Positions 1 through 6,013 of a DNA stretch of 6,013 bases are shown here, piece after piece. The position numbers were made by a program, and so were the translations under genes. The notes under the pieces were generated by a model that was not told the origin of the DNA, searched no databases, and worked only from the letters and a program-made list of their open reading frames with translations. This DNA is from a virus (lineage: Duplodnaviria; Heunggongvirae; Uroviricota; Caudoviricetes): positions 1-6,013 of IMG/VR virus record IMGVR_UViG_2657244931_000004. One strand, written 5' to 3'. Every line of letters starts with the position of its first letter. Position 1 is the stretch's first letter.

Positions 1-15
1 AAGTGGAGAACGAGC

Positions 16-768
16 ATGAACCTTGAAGCCTTACCAAAATATTACTCCCCAAAATCTCCCAAATTGAGCGATGAGGCACCGGCGACAGGCTCGGGTGGTT
101 TAACGATTACGGATGTGATGGCTGCGCAGGGGATGGTGCAGTCGAAAGCACCGCTTGGATTTGCCTTATTCCTGGCAAAAGTTGGTGTTCAGGATCCTCA
201 GTTTGCGATTGAAGGTCTGCTCAATTACGCGATGGCACTGGATAATCCGACATTGAATAAATTGAGTGAAGAAACCCGGTTACAGATCATCCCTTACCTT
301 GTGAATTTTGCCTTTGCTGATTATTCCAGGTCTGCGGCAAGTAAGGCTCGCTGTGAGCATTGTGCTGGTACTGGATTTCATAATGTATTGCGCGAAGTGG
401 TGAAACACTCCAGAAGCGGGGAATCTGTTATCAAGGAAGAGTGGGTGAAGGAACTATGTCAGCATTGTCATGGTAAGGGAGAAGTCAGCACAGCGTGTAG
501 AGGGTGTAAGGGTAAAGGTATTGTCCTGGATGAAAAAAGGACCCGGCTTCATGGCACGCCTGTTTATAAGATTTGTGGGCGTTGCAATGGAAACCGGTTT
601 AGCCGTTTACCAACCACACTGGCGCGGCATCATGTCCAGAAGCTGGTACCAGACCTGACGGATTATCAGTGGTACAAAGGATATGCAGATGTCATTGATA
701 AACTGGTGACAAAGTGCTGGCAGGAAGAAGCATATGCTGAGGCGCAATTAAGAAAAGTGACGAGATAA
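16..768 (+). CDS. Q: Late-gene antitermination protein Q family (250 aa), with cysteine-rich zinc-finger repeats
   Basis: Complete 250-aa ORF. It sits immediately upstream of a promoter/terminator pair and the lysis cassette, which is the canonical Q position. Residues 113-194 carry three perfect CxxCxGxG motifs (CEHCAGTG, CQHCHGKG, CRGCKGKG) and a fourth partial one (CGRCNGNR). Family assignment rests on synteny and motifs, not a search. Confidence 0.7.
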   Translation: MNLEALPKYYSPKSPKLSDEAPATGSGGLTITDVMAAQGMVQSKAPLGFALFLAKVGVQDPQFAIEGLLNYAMALDNPTLNKLSEETRLQIIPYLVNFAFADYSRSAASKARCEHCAGTGFHNVLREVVKHSRSGESVIKEEWVKELCQHCHGKGEVSTACRGCKGKGIVLDEKRTRLHGTPVYKICGRCNGNRFSRLPTTLARHHVQKLVPDLTDYQWYKGYADVIDKLVTKCWQEEAYAEAQLRKVTR

Positions 769-799
769 ATGATTTTCACCGAAGATAGCGACATGATTC

Positions 800-828
800 T
801 TGCATTTTTCAAAAAATCTGGTTAGGAT
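800..828 (+). promoter_or_regulatory. Candidate Q-dependent late promoter (PR'-like): -35 TTGCAT (800-805), 17-bp spacer, -10 TAGGAT (823-828)
   Basis: Sigma70-like hexamers with 17-bp spacing, 30 nt after the Q stop and about 50 nt upstream of a strong intrinsic terminator, matching the lambda PR'/tR' arrangement. The -10 is a weak match and overlaps a perfect palindrome (821-837). Confidence 0.35.
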
Positions 829-878
829 TTTCCTAACGATGGGCTTTGTATGTCTGCCGTTAACGAAATCATAACAAA

Positions 879-905
879 CCTCGCTTCGGCGGGGTTTTTG
901 CTTTT
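879..905 (+). terminator. Rho-independent terminator (tR'-like): CCUCGC-UUCG-GCGGGG hairpin followed by UUUUUGCUUUU
   Basis: A 6-bp GC-rich stem (one U-G wobble) with a UUCG tetraloop at 879-894, directly followed by a T-rich tract at 895-905. Position downstream of Q and the candidate late promoter fits a terminator that Q antitermination must read through. Confidence 0.65.
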
Positions 906-918
906 CTGGAGGTCAATA

Positions 919-1176
919 ATGCAGGGCGAAAAGCAGCAGCCATATTTTTTTAACCCTGGTATGACTGTTGAACAGCTTGAAGACTGGCTGGAGCAGCAAA
1001 AGCTTCATCTAAGCCGCTATAACCGTCTGGTAAAAGAAAAAGCAGAGCTTGAAGAACGGCTCAGTGATATTTCTGTGGAAATTGAACGAATGTCTGCTGG
1101 TGGTTTTAACGGAAAGTTGAGTTTCCCTTGGGAGTCAAGTTCGCTTCTGAGAAATCATCAACAGGGTAGTATTTGA
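919..1176 (+). CDS. Hypothetical small coiled-coil protein (86 aa) between the late terminator and the holin genes
   Basis: ATG at 919 is preceded by GGAGG (908-912) at 6-nt spacing. The track ORF 850-1176 is in the same frame, but its first 23 codons run through the terminator hairpin, so 919 is the preferred start. The protein is charged and helical (EQLEDWLEQQKLHLSRYNRLVKEKAELEERLSDISVEIERMS); no family recognised. Confidence 0.45.
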   Translation: MQGEKQQPYFFNPGMTVEQLEDWLEQQKLHLSRYNRLVKEKAELEERLSDISVEIERMSAGGFNGKLSFPWESSSLLRNHQQGSI

Positions 1177-1255
1177 CTGAAATAATAAACAGACTGTCAT
1201 TAAGATCCCTTCCCCTCATATCTGAGAGGACCAACAGCAATTAAGAGGGGGCTAA

Positions 1256-1642
1256 ATGTCCGATCCGATTTCCGGTACTGGGCTGGCTGGTGGTGCCCTG
1301 ACGGGTGCCAGTGTTTATGGACTGCTGACCGGAACTGATTACGGCGTTGTATTTGGCGCATTTGCAGGGGCTGTATTCTACATAGCAACAGCAGCAGATC
1401 TGAGTGCATCGCGCCGACTGGCATATTTTATCGTGTCATATATTGCCGGGATTCTTTGCTCTGGGTTGGTTGGCTCCAAGCTGGCGAACTTGACCGGATA
1501 CAGTGATAAACCTCTGGATGCTATTGGTGCCGTAATCGTCTCTGCTTTAGCCGTTAAAATCCTGACGTTCCTGAATAATCAGGATATCGGCTCGCTGGTG
1601 GCGCTCATAACGCGCCGGGGAGGTTCAGGTGGAGCTAAATGA
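1256..1642 (+). CDS. Putative holin or lysis-associated membrane protein (128 aa, 3-4 predicted TM helices, Gly/Ala-rich)
   Basis: RBS GAGGGGG (1245-1251) 4 nt before ATG 1256. Three to four hydrophobic segments and a short basic C-terminus (RRGGSGGAK). It is the first gene of the lysis cassette and overlaps the next gene by 14 nt. Holin versus antiholin cannot be decided from sequence. Confidence 0.55.
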   Translation: MSDPISGTGLAGGALTGASVYGLLTGTDYGVVFGAFAGAVFYIATAADLSASRRLAYFIVSYIAGILCSGLVGSKLANLTGYSDKPLDAIGAVIVSALAVKILTFLNNQDIGSLVALITRRGGSGGAK

Positions 1643-1910
1643 CCCGACAGCAACTATAAATGCGCTGTTATGTGCTTGTGTTGTTATTACTCTGATGTTT
1701 TATCGTCGTGGTGATTCGCGGCATCGTCCTTGGGTTTCACGTTTAGCCTGGCTGATTACTGTTACATACAGTGCTGTTCCGTTGGCCTATCTCTGTGGGA
1801 TTTATCCTCATTCCTCATGGCCCATTATCGTGGCGAACACTATTTTTCTTTCCGTGCTGGTGGCCGTCAGAGGCAACGTTGCACGTCTGGTTGATCATCT
1901 GAGGCACTAA
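1629..1910 (+). CDS. Putative holin (93 aa, 3 predicted TM helices, charged C-terminal tail)
   Basis: GTG start at 1629 preceded by GGGGAGG (1617-1623). Three hydrophobic segments and a basic C-terminus (RGNVARLVDHLRH) give a class-I-holin-like topology. Its stop overlaps the endolysin start (TAATG). The start codon is uncertain. Confidence 0.6.
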   Translation: MELNDPTATINALLCACVVITLMFYRRGDSRHRPWVSRLAWLITVTYSAVPLAYLCGIYPHSSWPIIVANTIFLSVLVAVRGNVARLVDHLRH

Positions 1911-2524
1911 TGAACCAACAATTATTTCAAAAGGCGGCTGGTATTAGCGCCGGGCTGGCTGCGCGCTGGTTTCCGCACATTGATGCGGCGATGAAGGAAT
2001 TCGGCATTACAGCACCAGCGGATCAGGCAATGTTTATCGCTCAGGTAGGCCATGAGTCGATGGGGTTTAGCGCCGTAGTTGAAAATTTTAACTACACACC
2101 ATCTGCGCTTGTGGCGACGTTCGGAAAGAGGATCACACAGCAGCAGGCTGATGTCCTTGGCAGAACATCCGGGCATGCAGCTCGTCAGGATGCTATTGCC
2201 AATCTGGTGTATAGCAACCGACTGGGTAACAAAGCACCAGGTGATGGCTGGAAATATCGTGGTAGAGGATTAATTCAAATCACTGGCCTCCATAATTATC
2301 GCATCTGTGGCGCGGCGCTGAAGTTAGATCTGGTGACTTCACCTGAACAACTGGAACAAGAGCTACAGGCGGCGCGCTCAGCTGCATGGTTCTACACCTC
2401 TAAATGCTGCATGATCTACGGTGCCGATATTAACCGTGTTACGCGCATCATTAACGGCGGTCTGAACGGTATTGAGGATCGTAAGGTCCGATACAACAAG
2501 GCGCGGGCGGCGCTGCTGGTATGA
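1910..2524 (+). CDS. Endolysin, glycoside hydrolase family 19 (chitinase-like lysozyme), 204 aa
   Basis: Contains the conserved AQVGHESMGF motif (catalytic Glu in HES) and YRGRGLIQITGLHNY, as I recall them from GH19-type phage endolysins. There is no hydrophobic N-terminal SAR segment, so export would depend on the holin. Position between holin and Rz is canonical. Confidence 0.85.
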   Translation: MNQQLFQKAAGISAGLAARWFPHIDAAMKEFGITAPADQAMFIAQVGHESMGFSAVVENFNYTPSALVATFGKRITQQQADVLGRTSGHAARQDAIANLVYSNRLGNKAPGDGWKYRGRGLIQITGLHNYRICGAALKLDLVTSPEQLEQELQAARSAAWFYTSKCCMIYGADINRVTRIINGGLNGIEDRKVRYNKARAALLV

Positions 2525-2913
2525 AGATGAGTTATTGGGCGCTCATTTTAACGTTTATTGCTTGTGTCGCTGGTGGTCTTGTCTGGTCAGCGAATCACTA
2601 TCATGGAAAGTTTCTGGAGGAGCAGAAGCGTGCTGACGCTGCGGAACAGCGAGCTGATTCTACTGAGGCTATCACCGCGAATGTTCTGCGTACTATGGCA
2701 ATAACGAACATCATTCAGGAGGCGAATCAACATGCAAAACAGCAGATCGCACTGGAGTCACAGAGAACCCAGGAAGATATCAAAGTGGCTGTTGCGGATG
2801 ATGATTGTGCTTCACGTCCTGTGCCTGCTGCCGCTGCTGACCGGTTGCGGAAGTACGCGAACAGTTTACGTGAGCATTCCGAAGACTCCACTACCAGTCA
2901 GCTTGACTTCTGA
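2521..2913 (+). CDS. Rz-like i-spanin (inner-membrane spanin subunit), 130 aa
   Basis: N-terminal TM segment (YWALILTFIACVAGGLVW) followed by a charged, helical periplasmic domain (EEQKRADAAEQRAD...). The start overlaps the endolysin stop (ATGA). The Rz1 reading frame is embedded in its 3' half. Confidence 0.75.
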   Translation: MKMSYWALILTFIACVAGGLVWSANHYHGKFLEEQKRADAAEQRADSTEAITANVLRTMAITNIIQEANQHAKQQIALESQRTQEDIKVAVADDDCASRPVPAAAADRLRKYANSLREHSEDSTTSQLDF

Positions 2914-3046
2914 TACACCTGTACCGTTTATACCCAACCCACTGACGTATGGTGCAAGTCTTGATTTGAATGTAAGTTTGTTATCCGCGTTGGCTCAATG
3001 TAATAGGGATAAGTCAGATATCAGAATCATTGATAATCAAAATTGA
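2732..3046 (+). CDS. Rz1-like o-spanin (outer-membrane lipoprotein), overlapping architecture; alternative start at 2798
   Basis: Different frame from Rz, beginning inside Rz and running 133 nt past its stop. Lipobox LLTGC after a hydrophobic stretch (MMIVLHVLCLLPLL); proline-rich mature part (PKTPLPVSLTSDTPVPFIPNP) with one Cys (AQCNRDK) in the C-terminal tail. A strong SD AGGAGG (2717-2722) lies 9 nt before ATG 2732; internal ATGs at 2798/2801 would give a conventional-length signal peptide. Confidence 0.65.
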   Translation: MQNSRSHWSHREPRKISKWLLRMMIVLHVLCLLPLLTGCGSTRTVYVSIPKTPLPVSLTSDTPVPFIPNPLTYGASLDLNVSLLSALAQCNRDKSDIRIIDNQN

Positions 3047-3146
3047 TGTATATATCGTCATGTAGATAACGAACAAGGTATTCCTCTGATACGTTTCGTT
3101 GAATACAGGTCATGGGTAGGCATTGCAATATCGCTTCGAAATTATC

Positions 3147-3155
3147 TGTGATAAT
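3147..3155 (+). promoter_or_regulatory. Candidate extended -10 promoter element (TGtGATAAT) for the AT-rich orphan gene
   Basis: TGnGATAAT at 3147-3155 within an AT-rich intergenic stretch, about 90 nt upstream of ATG 3246. No convincing -35 was found. Speculative. Confidence 0.25.
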
Positions 3156-3245
3156 GCTCTTAATTTTGAATGTATGTATTTGGGAAAAGAGATAAAGTAA
3201 TAGTCTAATTAATGGAGATATCCACAAAACACAAAAGGGACTATT

Positions 3246-3752
3246 ATGCGACCAGATCAATTTTTCTATCCAGATACTTTTACCTTTAATTCATCCACCT
3301 ATTATGGTCAACGTGACTCATCTAAAGGTCGATTGTATATTCCTATTGAAAGTGACTTATGTCCATTTAATATCGGCGATATCATTGTGCAAAAAATGGT
3401 CGACAGGGAAAGACTATTTGAAGTGCTTGATTACGAGGTGCAAATTAGTCTCGAGGCTGGTTGCCCTGGCTACTCACATTTGGCGGTATTGATAGTGAGG
3501 GCATTGGATGTAAAAGAGAAGCCGAAGCAGATTACTACCCATTTGACGTTTAACGGTGCTATTAATGCTGGTGGTGATTTTCAAGCCGGTAATGACAATT
3601 CGATCACAAAGAATATAACCATTCAACAACTACATGATGCTATAGAGCATTGCAATGATCCAGAGGTTAAAAGCCTTTGGCAAAAGCTATTGGAAAATCC
3701 GACGTTTGCTTCAATTGCTTCAATATTGGCAAAAAGTGCTTTAGGACAGTAA
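3246..3752 (+). CDS. Hypothetical protein (168 aa), AT-rich orphan cargo gene (moron) between lysis and packaging genes
   Basis: Clean 168-aa ORF with AAAAGGGA upstream of the ATG and an intrinsic terminator directly downstream. Base composition is visibly more AT-rich than the flanking phage genes (by eye, not computed). No signal peptide or TM segment; Ser/Thr/Tyr-rich N-terminus (TFTFNSSTYYGQRDSSKG). No family recognised. Confidence 0.6.
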   Translation: MRPDQFFYPDTFTFNSSTYYGQRDSSKGRLYIPIESDLCPFNIGDIIVQKMVDRERLFEVLDYEVQISLEAGCPGYSHLAVLIVRALDVKEKPKQITTHLTFNGAINAGGDFQAGNDNSITKNITIQQLHDAIEHCNDPEVKSLWQKLLENPTFASIASILAKSALGQ

Positions 3753-3761
3753 TTCATCAAG

Positions 3762-3783
3762 CCCCATTCAATATGGGGTTTTT
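3762..3783 (+). terminator. Rho-independent terminator: CCCCAU-UCAAU-AUGGGG hairpin followed by UUUUU
   Basis: Perfect 6-bp stem (3762-3767 / 3773-3778), 5-nt loop and a T5 run (3779-3783), 10 nt after the stop of the 168-aa ORF. Confidence 0.6.
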
Positions 3784-3809
3784 ATGCTTATTGCAAAGAG
3801 TTTTCTTCA

Positions 3810-4160
3810 ATGCCACCACGAACCCCAAAAGCCTGCCGTGTTCGCGGGTGCCGCCATACCACCACTGACCCGTCAGGTTATTGCGAAAGCCACAAAAGCG
3901 AAGGCTGGAAGCAATACAAGCCAGGACAATCCCGTCATCAGCGCGGCTACGGTTCGAAGTGGGACGTTATCCGCGCGCGTGTGCTGAAACGTGACAAAGG
4001 TTTATGTCAGTTATGTCTGCGTGCCGGTGTGGTGCGTGAAGCGAAAACCGTTGACCACATCATCCCTAAAGCGCATGGCGGTACTGATGCCGACTGTAAT
4101 CTGCAGAGTCTGTGCTGGCCGTGTCATAAGGCGAAGACGGCCCGTGAACGGTTGAAGTGA
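3810..4160 (+). CDS. HNH endonuclease (116 aa), phage packaging-associated type
   Basis: HNH signature DHIIPKAHGG ... N ... CWPCH with paired CxxC motifs (CQLC, CWPC), plus an N-terminal Cys/His cluster (CRVRGCRH...CESH). It lies immediately upstream of the terminase small subunit, as in HK97-like phages. Confidence 0.85.
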   Translation: MPPRTPKACRVRGCRHTTTDPSGYCESHKSEGWKQYKPGQSRHQRGYGSKWDVIRARVLKRDKGLCQLCLRAGVVREAKTVDHIIPKAHGGTDADCNLQSLCWPCHKAKTARERLK

Positions 4161-4186
4161 TAATAATTCTCAACTTCCTGAGGGGA

Positions 4187-4246
4187 GGGGCGGGTCAAAT
4201 CCCTGCGGCCTGACGTCTTCCGGACTGCCCGCCCCATCGTTTTTTT
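4187..4246 (+). other. GC-rich imperfect inverted repeat (GGGGCGGG ... CCCGCCCC) followed by a T7 run; candidate cos region and/or terminator between HNH and terS
   Basis: GGGGCGGG (4187-4194) pairs with CCCGCCCC (4228-4235) around a loop of about 33 nt containing a GACGTC palindrome; T-run at 4240-4246. In HK97-type phages cos lies between the HNH gene and terS. The exact cohesive-end site cannot be identified from sequence. Confidence 0.35.
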
Positions 4247-4285
4247 ATACCCGCGAAAAATGAAATTTAACCAGGAGTGCCGCAT

Positions 4286-4780
4286 ATGGCTGGAACGGCG
4301 GGGCGTTCCGGGCGTCGCCCCAAGCCAACGGCGCGCAAGGCGCTGGCCGGAAACCCCGGCAAGCGAGCCCTGAATAAAGATGAACCTGTTTTTACGCCCA
4401 TCAAAGGTGTTGAGCCACCGGAGTGGTTCGCAGAAGAAAATCTCCCTCTCGCCACGATCATGTGGCAACTGACAACCAAAGAACTCTGCGGTCAGGGCCT
4501 GTTGTGCGTGACTGACCTCGCGGTGCTTGAGCGGTGGTGCGTGGCCTATGAGTTCTGGCGACGTGCCGTGAAAAATATTGCCATACAGGGCAACACCATC
4601 ACCGGTGCAATGGGCGGCAGGGTCAAAAATCCGGAGCTGACCGCCAAAAAAGAACAGGAGTCCGAGATGAGCAGCACGGGGGCAATGCTCGGACTCGACC
4701 CCAGCAGCCGCCAGCGTCTGATTGGCCTGGCGGGGCAGAAGAAAGCCACTAACCCGTTTCTGAAAATCATCGAGTCATGA
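4286..4780 (+). CDS. terS: Terminase small subunit, P27 family (alternative GTG start at 4277)
   Basis: N-terminal motif [21 protein letters not shown] contains the GNPGKR signature I associate with P27-family small terminases. AGGAG (4273-4277) lies 8 nt upstream of ATG 4286. The stop overlaps the terL start (ATGA). Confidence 0.85.
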
Positions 4781-6013
4781 GCCGGAAATCTTACCCCAAC
4801 GTAAATGCTGCCAATCAGTATGCCCGTGATGTTGTGCGCGGAAAGATTGTGGCCTGCCAGTTTGTGATTCAGGCCTGCCAGCGCCATCTTGATGACCTGA
4901 TGGCGGAAAAAAGTAAGTCGTTTCGTTACCGCTTCGACAAGGACCTGGCTGAACGGGCCGCCAAATTTATTCAGCTGTTGCCGCATACCAAGGGTGAGTG
5001 GGCATTCAAACGGATGCCCATCACGCTGGAGCCGTGGCAGCTCTTTGTGATCTGCTGTGCGTTTGGCTGGGTCAATAAAGGTACCCGGCTGCGCCGCTTC
5101 CGGGAGGTGTATACCGAAATCCCCCGTAAGAACGGCAAATCGGCAATCTCTGCCGGTGTCGCCCTGTATTGTTTTGCCTGTGATAACGAGTTTGGCGCGG
5201 AAGTGTATTCCGGTGCCACGACAGAGAAACAGGCGTGGGAAGTCTTTCGCCCGGCGCGACTGATGTGTAAACGCACACCCATGCTGACGGAAGCGTTCGG
5301 GATTGAGGTTAACGCCTCAAACATGAACCGTCCGGAGGATGGTGCGCGGTTTGAACCGCTGATCGGTAACCCCGGTGATGGTTCATCACCCCACTGTGCC
5401 GTGGTGGATGAATATCACGAGCACGCCACAGATGCGCTTTACACCACGATGCTTACCGGGATGGGGGCGCGACGTCAGCCACTGATGTGGGCTATCACTA
5501 CCGCCGGGTACAACATTGAGGGGCCGTGCTACGACAAACGGCGGGAAGTCATCGAGATGCTCAACGGCTCGGTGCCTAACGATGAACTGTTCGGGATCAT
5601 CTATACCGTTGATGAAGGTGACGACTGGACCGACCCGCAGGTGTTGGAAAAAGCCAATCCAAATATTGGCGTGTCGGTTTATCGCGAATTTTTGTTAAGT
5701 CAGCAGCAGCGTGCGAAAAATAACGCCCGTCTGGCAAACGTCTTTAAAACAAAACACCTCAATATCTGGGTGTCGGCGCGTTCGGCGTATTTCAACCTGG
5801 TGAGCTGGCAGAGCTGCGAGGATAAATCACTGACCCTTGAGCAGTTCGAGGGGCAGCCGTGCATTCTGGCCTTTGACCTGGCGCGTAAGCTGGATATGAA
5901 CAGCATGGCGCGACTTTATACCCGCGAGATTGACGGTAAAACGCATTACTACAGTGTGGCCCCGCGTTTCTGGGTACCGTATGACACGGTGTACAGCGTC
6001 GAGAAAAATGAAG
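4777..6013 (+). CDS. terL: Terminase large subunit (ATPase/nuclease), 5' partial; continues beyond window end
   Basis: Open frame from ATG 4777 to the window end (412 codons, no stop), so it is absent from the complete-ORF track. Walker A-like EIPRKNGKS, Walker B-like VVDEYHE, directly downstream of terS. The short ORFs listed in this span are in other frames. Confidence 0.9.

Follow-up and report, generated by a model that had tools for sequence, protein, structure and literature searches.

A single-gene moron cassette at the Rz1-HNH junction of an SfV-like Escherichia coli prophage encodes a predicted two-module protein of an unannotated family

Introduction

What is the role of a lone AT-rich gene that stands between the lysis and packaging genes of a temperate phage, and is it part of the phage core or cargo? 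The question is raised by a gene for a protein of 168 amino acids (aa) at positions 3246-3752 (plus strand) of a 6,013-nucleotide stretch of the Caudoviricetes record IMGVR_UViG_2657244931_000004 (positions 1 to 6,013; the whole stretch is called the window here), where it lies between Rz1, which encodes the o-spanin, and a gene for an HNH endonuclease. A preliminary description, made from the letters alone, had proposed that the gene is an orphan, self-contained moron in a hotspot for accessory cargo, with a possible defense or effector-like role. Our analysis shows that the gene is the content of a single-gene moron cassette of about 775 bp, inserted between Rz1 and HNH in an SfV-like prophage of E. 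coli. It is very probable that this cassette is moron-type cargo encoding a functional two-module protein, a member of an undescribed family that has been spread by temperate phages and satellites.

The cassette and its boundaries

The insert has sharp edges. In BLASTN comparisons with related prophages that have both flanks (SKA5, 118970_sal3, 720R4, enterotoxigenic E. coli [ETEC] H10407, and others), homology ends near the end of Rz1, at a left breakpoint in 3005-3033, and restarts at the start codon of the HNH gene, at a right breakpoint in 3802-3810; the cassette between them (3034-3808) has no homology to these relatives. The left breakpoint lies inside Rz1 and leaves the final 13 to 40 nt of that gene on the cassette side, so that each exchange of cargo also alters the C terminus of the o-spanin. 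The entire cassette is found at 97 to 99.7% identity in phage 689R6 and in 29 E. coli genomes.

Base composition marks off the same region, which had first been described as a visibly AT-rich island including some 200 bp of upstream DNA. The GC content of 3047-3790 is 0.374, versus 0.481 to the left (1-3046) and 0.554 to the right (3791-6013), and it is 0.332 in the 199-bp spacer upstream of the gene (3047-3245, plus strand), a possible promoter region. The gene itself has a GC content of 0.391 and a GC content at third codon positions (GC3) of 0.337, distinguishable from the GC3 of the neighboring genes (0.42 to 0.67).

The open reading frame (ORF) is present as predicted, with its ATG at 3246 and its TAA at 3750-3752, and the signals for translation and termination were read correctly as well. 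A Shine-Dalgarno-like AAGGGA (3235-3240, plus strand; read directly) stands 5 nt upstream of the ATG as a plausible ribosome-binding site (RBS). The proposed terminator, an intrinsic-terminator-like hairpin followed by a run of five T residues (3759-3790, plus strand), has a stem of nine pairs with a loop of 5 nt (3759-3781), at -16.4 kcal/mol and z = -3.6 versus shuffled sequences, and most homologues also have a hairpin after the stop codon. The claim that the moron is self-contained holds for terminator, composition, and patchy occurrence; its promoter part does not fare as well. Sigma-70-like sites in the spacer are weak, among them one with 9 of 12 matches at 3030-3058, and the candidate extended -10-like element TGTGATAAT (3147-3155, plus strand) is not above chance, there being 7 such sites in the window versus 4.5 expected. 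Rfam gave no match over 2900-3900, and thus no known RNA is indicated in the AT-rich spacer.

To judge from its substitution pattern, the gene is real and under purifying selection. We count it as real because its polymorphism is biased toward synonymous changes and the proportion of nonsynonymous differences (pN) lies far below that of synonymous differences (pS): of the polymorphic codons in 16 near-identical copies (7 alleles), 8 are synonymous only and 3 are amino acid changing, and versus homologues of about 60% identity pN is 0.22 to 0.27 and pS, which is saturated, 0.83 to 0.86.

Distribution of the family

Within E. coli the gene behaves as variable cargo. The HNH-TerS module is present in about 1100 of 5426 complete genomes and the cargo gene in 29; about 2 to 3% of the prophages with the same HNH-TerS module have it. 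In relatives, the slot between Rz1 and HNH holds Iss, a GrlR-family gene, or other hypothetical small ORFs, or is empty. Among 13 near-identical copies on viral contigs, the 3' end of Rz1 and the HNH-TerS flank are kept, and the upstream lysis genes are mosaic. Comparison of the interval across related prophages thus bears out the initial suggestion of a hotspot in which the gene is an accessory rather than a universal occupant, and the features by which morons are recognized (patchy presence with sharp boundaries, deviant base composition, and a terminator of its own) are all found here. Two of the alternative occupants can be named more closely: the gene for the Iss serum-survival lipoprotein stands on the opposite strand in a cattle isolate (locus L017, 1682-1975), and the gene for a GrlR-family regulator occurs in ETEC H10407 (L015, 2088-2408). 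A set of lambda-type holin and GH24 lysozyme precedes many otherwise identical cassettes in place of the window's lysis set.

The description of the gene as an orphan did not hold. The protein matches PHROG 5789 from end to end (E = 7.3e-79; residues 1-168 on profile positions 1-167/168), a family without assigned function, and its homologues form 22 clusters at 90% identity, all unnamed; its own 90%-identity cluster is represented on over 1800 E. coli and Salmonella contigs. A profile search of 1.8 billion representatives returned 78 hits in all, nearly all of 145 to 180 aa, and the conserved modular family amounts to about 78 clusters at 50% identity, without any annotation. In the literature searched, including under WP_001247186, WP_001053662, and phrog_5789, we found no description of the family or of its conserved motif.

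Members of the family are found in several kinds of location. In at least six different phage backbones, homologues follow immediately on the spanins and precede the packaging genes; others are lone genes on the opposite strand, in the TerL-portal or the Mu I-Mu F interval or at the 3' ends of primase genes, and these must have transcription separate from that of the flanking operons. Still others lie between the replication and capsid modules of satellites of the capsid-forming phage-inducible chromosomal island (cfPICI) type, which we classed by the published definition (PMC10085698), in E. coli (51 genomes), Kluyvera, Enterobacter, Pluralibacter, and Winslowiella. The lone family genes have GC contents of 0.35 to 0.46, below their surroundings in every locus examined, and the family reaches marine Gammaproteobacteria, Thermodesulfobacteriota, and Kiritimatiellales. 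A first scan of genome contigs, made with the window's subfamily, found no relative.

Predicted structure and conserved motif

Two AlphaFold2 runs, based on alignments of 22 and 40 sequences, gave results that agree. Residues 1-89 (3246-3512, plus strand) form an N-terminal six-stranded small beta-barrel with a predicted local distance difference test score (pLDDT) of 80 to 94, conserved across the family and predicted to be a binding or sensor domain. The Ser/Thr/Tyr-rich stretch near the N terminus, which had been thought compatible with a secreted-effector-type signal, makes up core strands of this barrel (residues 10-14 and 17-24, pLDDT above 90), and that suggestion was rejected in view of its place in a structured, conserved domain. 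Neither a signal peptide nor a lipobox was found in the protein, and, as had been noted, there is no transmembrane (TM) segment (maximum Kyte-Doolittle 19-residue mean, 1.09).

The profile and structure searches proposed in the preliminary description were thus productive as regards the family, matched over its full length, and the barrel, which is predicted with confidence; they gave no match to a known fold. A PDB sequence search returned chance-level matches alone (cadherin, IRE1, and pectate lyase; E of at least 0.13), and a BFVD fold search gave a single weak, unnamed match. A specific fold, that of a neck protein or of PilZ, was rejected since the fold searches were insignificant, and we keep the designation of a generic small beta-barrel. 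PilZ domains bind cyclic di-GMP by the motifs RxxxR and (D/N)xSxxG, a pair that the window protein does not have. Weak matches to cadherin-23 were seen in the PDB sequence search, and two giant proteins with cadherin-like repeats (P0052, 4708 aa; P0120, 1793 aa) match barrel profile positions 4-62 repeatedly; we judged that these two are probably an artifact of beta-strand and repeat composition and not homologues of the barrel.

The family's most conserved columns fall in the unstructured region that follows the barrel, residues 95-122 (3528-3611, plus strand; pLDDT below 50 in both models), which holds TFNGAINAGGDFQAGNDNSITKNI and is a putative self-association motif resembling RHIM and bacterial amyloid signaling sequences (BASS). 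At its core is F-Q-A-G-N-D-N (residues 112-118; 3579-3599, plus strand), in which Q113, G115, and N118 vary little or not at all across the extended family. The Q, G, and N of phi-Q-phi-G-x-x-N and the D of DPEAK are alone in never varying in an alignment of 27 modules (A2). Among 40 full-length proteins, G115 never varies, and Q113, N118, D138, K142, and N151 are nearly invariant; Q113 and N118 are at least 90% conserved in the full-length alignments (A3 and A4).

Three helices close the protein (residues 126-166; 3621-3743, plus strand), at 126-134, 139-149, and 152-166 with pLDDT of 62 to 77; they include DPEVK and an Ala/Ser-rich C-terminal helix, PTFASIASILAKSALGQ. In most relatives the last helix is a hydrophobic Gly/Ala-zipper with a mean Kyte-Doolittle value over 17 residues (KD17) of 1.5 to 2.1, versus 0.83 in the window protein and its subfamily. 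By this measure the C-terminal helix is hydrophobic enough in most relatives for membrane entry, and PTFASIASILAKSALGQ reads as a weakened version of the family's hydrophobic Gly/Ala-zipper tail. The canonical module is (F/Y)NIGSISGxQVQVGNNNxQxxNITIQELVEKVAKSxDPEAKSLLKKLLENSTVASIVGAGASALLGLL. It occurs alone or fused to unrelated N termini (the barrel, a second beta-domain, a Zn-ribbon, a winged-helix-turn-helix [wHTH]-like domain, or a helical one). In its organization the family resembles an effector module, open to fusion with a sensor or to recruitment by one. One protein (P0109, 326 aa) has the barrel and a degenerate module fused to a C-terminal GNAT acetyltransferase domain.

Motif sharing between adjacent genes

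We built a hidden Markov model (HMM) of the motif and scanned with it all ORFs of every locus examined. In four loci a neighboring gene has the same motif, once at the C terminus of an AbiTii-domain protein. In this last case (L025), the AbiTii-domain gene and a Zn-ribbon-module gene form a pair at 753-1889, with an AGGAG RBS and a common NIGSI-QVQ-GNNN motif: the AbiTii-domain protein ends in ...NVNIGSITGHQVQLGNNNTQ / ...NVNIGSITGHQVQLGNNNTQHKKTAKR, and the next gene (P0081), 24 bp downstream, encodes a module that starts ...TFNIGSISSQQVQVGNNNNQ / ...TFNIGSISSQQVQVGNNNNQIVNITIQQL and continues into helices and tail (motif HMM, E = 3e-8). A DNA methylase fragment lies near the pair. Tandem pairs of motif-bearing genes occur in L022/L023, L047 (Winslowiella), and L050 (Enterobacter soli), and in the latter two the upstream partner has a different N-terminal domain and a degenerate tail. 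The phage at locus L042 has two module proteins in separate cargo slots (2623-3114, minus strand; 5001-5504), its second module protein having a different N-terminal beta-domain and a canonical NVQVGNHN motif. The partners in relatives are an AbiTii-domain protein or small module-bearing paralogues, and none is an NLR (NB-ARC/NACHT) or TGP protein; the sole nearby P-loop match (L060), to NB-ARC at E = 6e-4 along 35 residues, amounts to a generic match to Walker A.

Two further observations concern these loci and the AbiTii proteins at large. In L022 (5589-6348), a gene for wHTH, barrel, and module is seemingly split into two ORFs, by a frameshift or as a pseudogene, immediately upstream of a second, intact module gene and about 3 kb from a HicAB pair. 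The common AbiTii proteins of 300 aa in Burkholderia, Pseudomonas, and Stenotrophomonas (P0153, P0184, P0189, and about 60 others) have a conserved region in their last ~115 residues, with NIxIxNFQGILGNV, helices, DPEP, and a hydrophobic Gly/Ala tail, which is not HEPN.

Gene neighborhood of the window

Gene order and family matches identify the window as a late-gene junction of a temperate phage. The Q antiterminator (16-768) is followed by an ORF of PHROG 3501 (850-1176; GC content, 0.437), two overlapping holin-family genes (Phage_holin_8, 1256-1642; the 3TM Phage_holin_3_7, 1629-1910), a GH19 endolysin (1910-2524), Rz (2521-2913), and, overlapping Rz, the Rz1/LysC o-spanin that forms the left flank of the cargo gene (2732-3046, plus strand). 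Rz1 extends 133 nt beyond the Rz stop. On the right, the HNH endonuclease gene (3810-4160, plus strand) opens an HNH-TerS(P27)-TerL packaging module, with a P27-type small terminase (4277-4780) and then the start of the large terminase. Both flanks had been named correctly at the outset (Pfam LysC, 3.7e-15; HNH, 5.3e-15).

In E. coli SCU-482, the corresponding region lies within a 37-kb prophage adjoining ybhC. That prophage combines HK97-type head genes and a Mu-like contractile tail with an early region of lambdoid type; among phage records, SfV-like phages and vB_EcoM-689R6 stand nearest. The gap between Q and the holins (850-1176 in the window) looks like a second cargo slot: it contains a TIR-domain gene in L018 (22-837, minus strand), a hypothetical gene of 261 aa in L010 (17321-18106), two uncharacterized ORFs in L041 (1662-3167), and a module-bearing paralogue in L042 (2623-3114). 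HNH, TerS, and the 5' part of TerL are duplicated in L028 (4470-6724 and 8422-10504) and L037 (989-3225 and 5172-7023), with the copies about 3.9 kb apart, an arrangement resembling either an insertion in TerL with duplication or a contig misassembly.

Discussion

If the cassette is cargo, what does it deliver? A defense or exclusion role is plausible for the window gene, as far as sequence and structural models can indicate, in view of the modular sensor-plus-tail architecture, the accessory slots in prophages and cfPICI satellites, and one AbiTii-adjacent relative that shares the motif; anti-phage systems are known on satellites and prophages (PMC10085698). The mechanism that we put forward is tentative, and we give it somewhat less than an even chance. 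The N-terminal barrel would bind a ligand or phage protein, and the protein would be idle in a lysogen or satellite-bearing cell until an incoming or induced phage supplied the signal to the barrel; the Q/G/N motif would then drive self-association, or binding of a co-encoded partner, in the manner of RHIM and BASS amyloids, and the clustered C-terminal helices would act on the inner membrane, with the result that the infection is aborted or excluded. Amyloid-type assembly is the weakest step of this mechanism; an indirect hint of it is the pLDDT of less than 50 in a stretch that is maximally conserved.

Several observations weigh against such a role. With a KD17 of 0.83 and a Lys at its middle, the tail of the window protein is only weakly hydrophobic and the least membrane-like of the family, which makes membrane insertion doubtful for this member. 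Neither Pfam, NCBIfam, nor PADLOC matched the window protein or ten relatives (for PADLOC-DB 2.0, the relatives were compared at E <= 1), and the barrel fold is generic, Foldseek against the PDB giving nothing significant (best E, 0.07). As for the amyloid step, the RHIM tetrad, which occupies the center of a core of three strands, is (V/I)-Q-(V/I/L/C)-G (PMC9444067); of 57 wider-family representatives, 41 have a strict tetrad at the homologous position, as do 0 of 22 members of the window's subfamily, which have FQAG (21 of 22) or LQAG. The G-phi-Q-phi-G signature of RHIM, PP, and BASS3 is likewise absent from all 22 and present in 2 of the 57, and Pfam RHIM (PF12721) gave no match at E <= 0.1 for the window protein and none at E <= 10 for ten relatives. 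The link to AbiTii comes from one 3.2-kb metagenomic contig (L025), and with the motif in 1 of 80 AbiTii homologues and missing from the other 79, we rejected AbiTii plus motif as a recurrent architecture. Homology of the module to the ordinary AbiTii C-terminal region was rejected too (hhalign probability, 1.2%); the layout alone is alike. Neither the window nor the 40-kb prophage L010 has another ORF that the motif HMM matches; a partner gene within the gene's own prophage was accordingly discarded, and any action of the window gene would be unaided. The two E. coli subfamilies, that of the window and that of the satellites, do not co-occur (0 shared genomes, 0.27 expected), and an obligate partnership between them was rejected on the lack of a shared genome. 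Finally, the frequent same-orientation position next to the spanins also fits a late or lysis role.

That role is the first of the other explanations to be weighed. As an accessory of late gene expression, the protein would come from the Q-dependent late transcript, like the holins, endolysin, and spanins, and would tune the timing of lysis or the action of spanin or holin at the membrane. The gene stands directly 3' of Rz/Rz1 and in the same orientation in the window and in six other loci (L007, L011, L014, L040, L041, and L042), despite differing lysis cassettes, and the C-terminal helix is of a membrane-associating type in relatives. The terminator would be no obstacle, as Q-modified polymerase would read through it; such read-through is established lambdoid biology. 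However, only about 2 to 3% of the prophages with the packaging module have the gene, and close relatives lyse without it; its low GC content is foreign to the lysis genes; and members of the family also stand on the opposite strand between TerL and portal or between Mu I and Mu F, by primase genes, and in cfPICI satellites. These satellites are by definition without a holin (PMC10085698). We regard a lysis accessory as unlikely. A divergent virion neck protein (of head-closure or stopper type) or head-assembly factor is the least credible of the alternatives, and very improbable: the combination of a fold match with conservation as a core structural gene, by which such proteins are recognized, is not found here.

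Two further explanations accept the gene as cargo and give it another purpose. It could be a counter-defense decoy, whose degenerate motif and weak tail would cap or sequester a death effector of the same family encoded by host or satellite, as herpesvirus RHIM proteins do against necroptosis; viral RHIM decoys are an established strategy (PMC9444067). The window's subfamily combines a divergent FQAG tetrad and the least hydrophobic tail with retention of the invariant Q, G, and N, canonical members live in satellites that parasitize phages, and the phage at L042 has both a canonical-type and a window-type protein. Yet the whole module and the barrel are under purifying selection, with no reduction to a bare motif, the toxicity that canonical proteins would need is without support, and neither co-occurrence with nor exclusion of the E. 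coli satellite subfamily is seen, the count of shared genomes (0 versus 0.27 expected) being uninformative. The chance of a decoy is, in our judgment, slender. Slightly more doubtful still is a lysogenic-conversion factor that would serve host fitness unrelated to phage, as Bor and Iss do. The slot itself invites the idea, since in other prophages it is occupied by Iss, a lipoprotein for serum survival that resembles Bor, or by a GrlR-family regulator, and an AT-rich moron with its own terminator is a typical layout for such factors; but signal peptide, lipobox, and TM segment are all absent from the window protein, the spread of the family to marine Gammaproteobacteria, Thermodesulfobacteriota, and Kiritimatiellales argues against a virulence role tied to a host niche, and the neighbors are phage or satellite genes and once an Abi-domain gene.

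If sensing by the barrel, assembly by the motif, and action of the helices do make up a defense or exclusion function, the family as a whole may be read more broadly. Its members may combine a swappable N-terminal sensor, a prion-like Q-x-G-x-x-N motif, and a C-terminal membrane helix in about 170 residues, with these parts sometimes split over adjacent genes, as in the pair with an AbiTii sensor. They would then be a new class of single-chain, amyloid-type (RHIM/BASS-like) switches for cell death or exclusion, borne by temperate phages and capsid-forming satellites in Enterobacteria and further Proteobacteria. In this class the window's subfamily, with its FQAG and weak tail, would be a tuned effector or a phage-encoded decoy against the canonical effectors, as a bacterial analogue of viral RHIM decoys. 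We consider this class improbable. Were the proposed mechanism to hold, the control of cell fate by self-templating RHIM-like motifs would extend beyond filamentous bacteria, fungi, and animals to ordinary enterobacterial prophages and satellites; the minimal one-protein format would be easy to dissect genetically; a defense or counter-defense family would have been missed by current detection tools; and a recurrent cfPICI accessory slot would gain a function, as would the question of what some AbiTii-domain sensors signal to gain an answer. Even without any anti-phage role, our results document a well-delimited cargo hotspot between Rz1 and HNH and a conserved modular family without annotation.

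Comparison with known systems

A motif common to the products of adjacent genes is the definition of amyloid signaling pairs, both fungal and bacterial (bioRxiv 10.1101/2020.01.06.895854). One such pair, Bab/Agp, is an abortive infection (Abi) system in E. coli prophage hotspots, and in its effector Bab the motif accompanies a hydrophobic helix and a small helical domain (bioRxiv 10.1101/2024.11.07.622273). The window protein resembles Bab in being a small prophage-borne protein in a cargo hotspot, with a short Q/N/G-rich motif that is unstructured in the monomer, a helical part, and one hydrophobic, Gly-containing helix; in its relatives (L025, L047, L050, and L022), the product of an adjacent gene with a sensor-type domain has the motif too. 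The motif BASS11 includes I-G-S-V (bioRxiv 10.1101/2024.11.07.622273), and the canonical motif of our family has I-G-S-[IV], the two being compared by description. The order of parts is reversed, however: Bab runs from hydrophobic helix through Bell-like domain to motif, and the window protein from barrel through motif and helices to hydrophobic helix, so that the Bell-domain layout of an N-terminal hydrophobic helix, a helical domain, and an amyloid motif at the C terminus is not what we find. The window protein is also an all-in-one protein, partnerless in its own prophage, and no TPR-GreA/B-PIN or NLR partner was seen.

With RHIM, PP, and BASS3 the family shares a central phi-Q-phi-G, here followed by x-x-N, and short beta-prone flanking segments (NIGSIS, QVQV, and NITI), an arrangement that recalls the RHIM three-strand core with its central VQVG (PMC9444067); unlike those motifs, the one described here is internal rather than terminal and has no NLR (NB-ARC/NACHT) partner. 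AbiTii is an N-terminal domain whose usual fusion partners in abortive infection proteins are effector (HEPN) domains, and an interaction with components of the phage has been proposed for it (PMC3710099). The relationship of our family to AbiT/AbiTii systems consists in the relative P0081, encoded 24 bp downstream of an AbiTii-domain protein with the same motif at its C terminus, and in the similar C-terminal layout of proteobacterial AbiTii proteins (a beta-prone Q/G stretch, helices, DPEP, and a Gly/Ala tail); the window protein itself has no AbiTii domain (PF18864), and the PADLOC AbiT models do not match it.

As a genetic element, the cassette is most readily set beside the lambdoid morons bor and iss, with which it has in common the slot, the low GC content, the single gene with its own terminator, and the patchy occurrence among homologous prophages. 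Bor and Iss differ in being secreted lipoproteins encoded on the opposite strand, with a role in host fitness; the window protein is predicted to be cytoplasmic, is encoded in the direction of the late operon, and is a member of a different family. As a putative effector, it is comparable in concept to the pore-forming effectors of HET-S/HeLo and Bell type, which are under amyloid control. There is no relation to these in sequence or fold, the module is short (about 70 residues), and its membrane helix is C-terminal rather than N-terminal; what the window protein and its relatives would share with them, if the predicted activity is borne out, is the principle of a membrane-active helix that stays inactive until a prion-like motif assembles.

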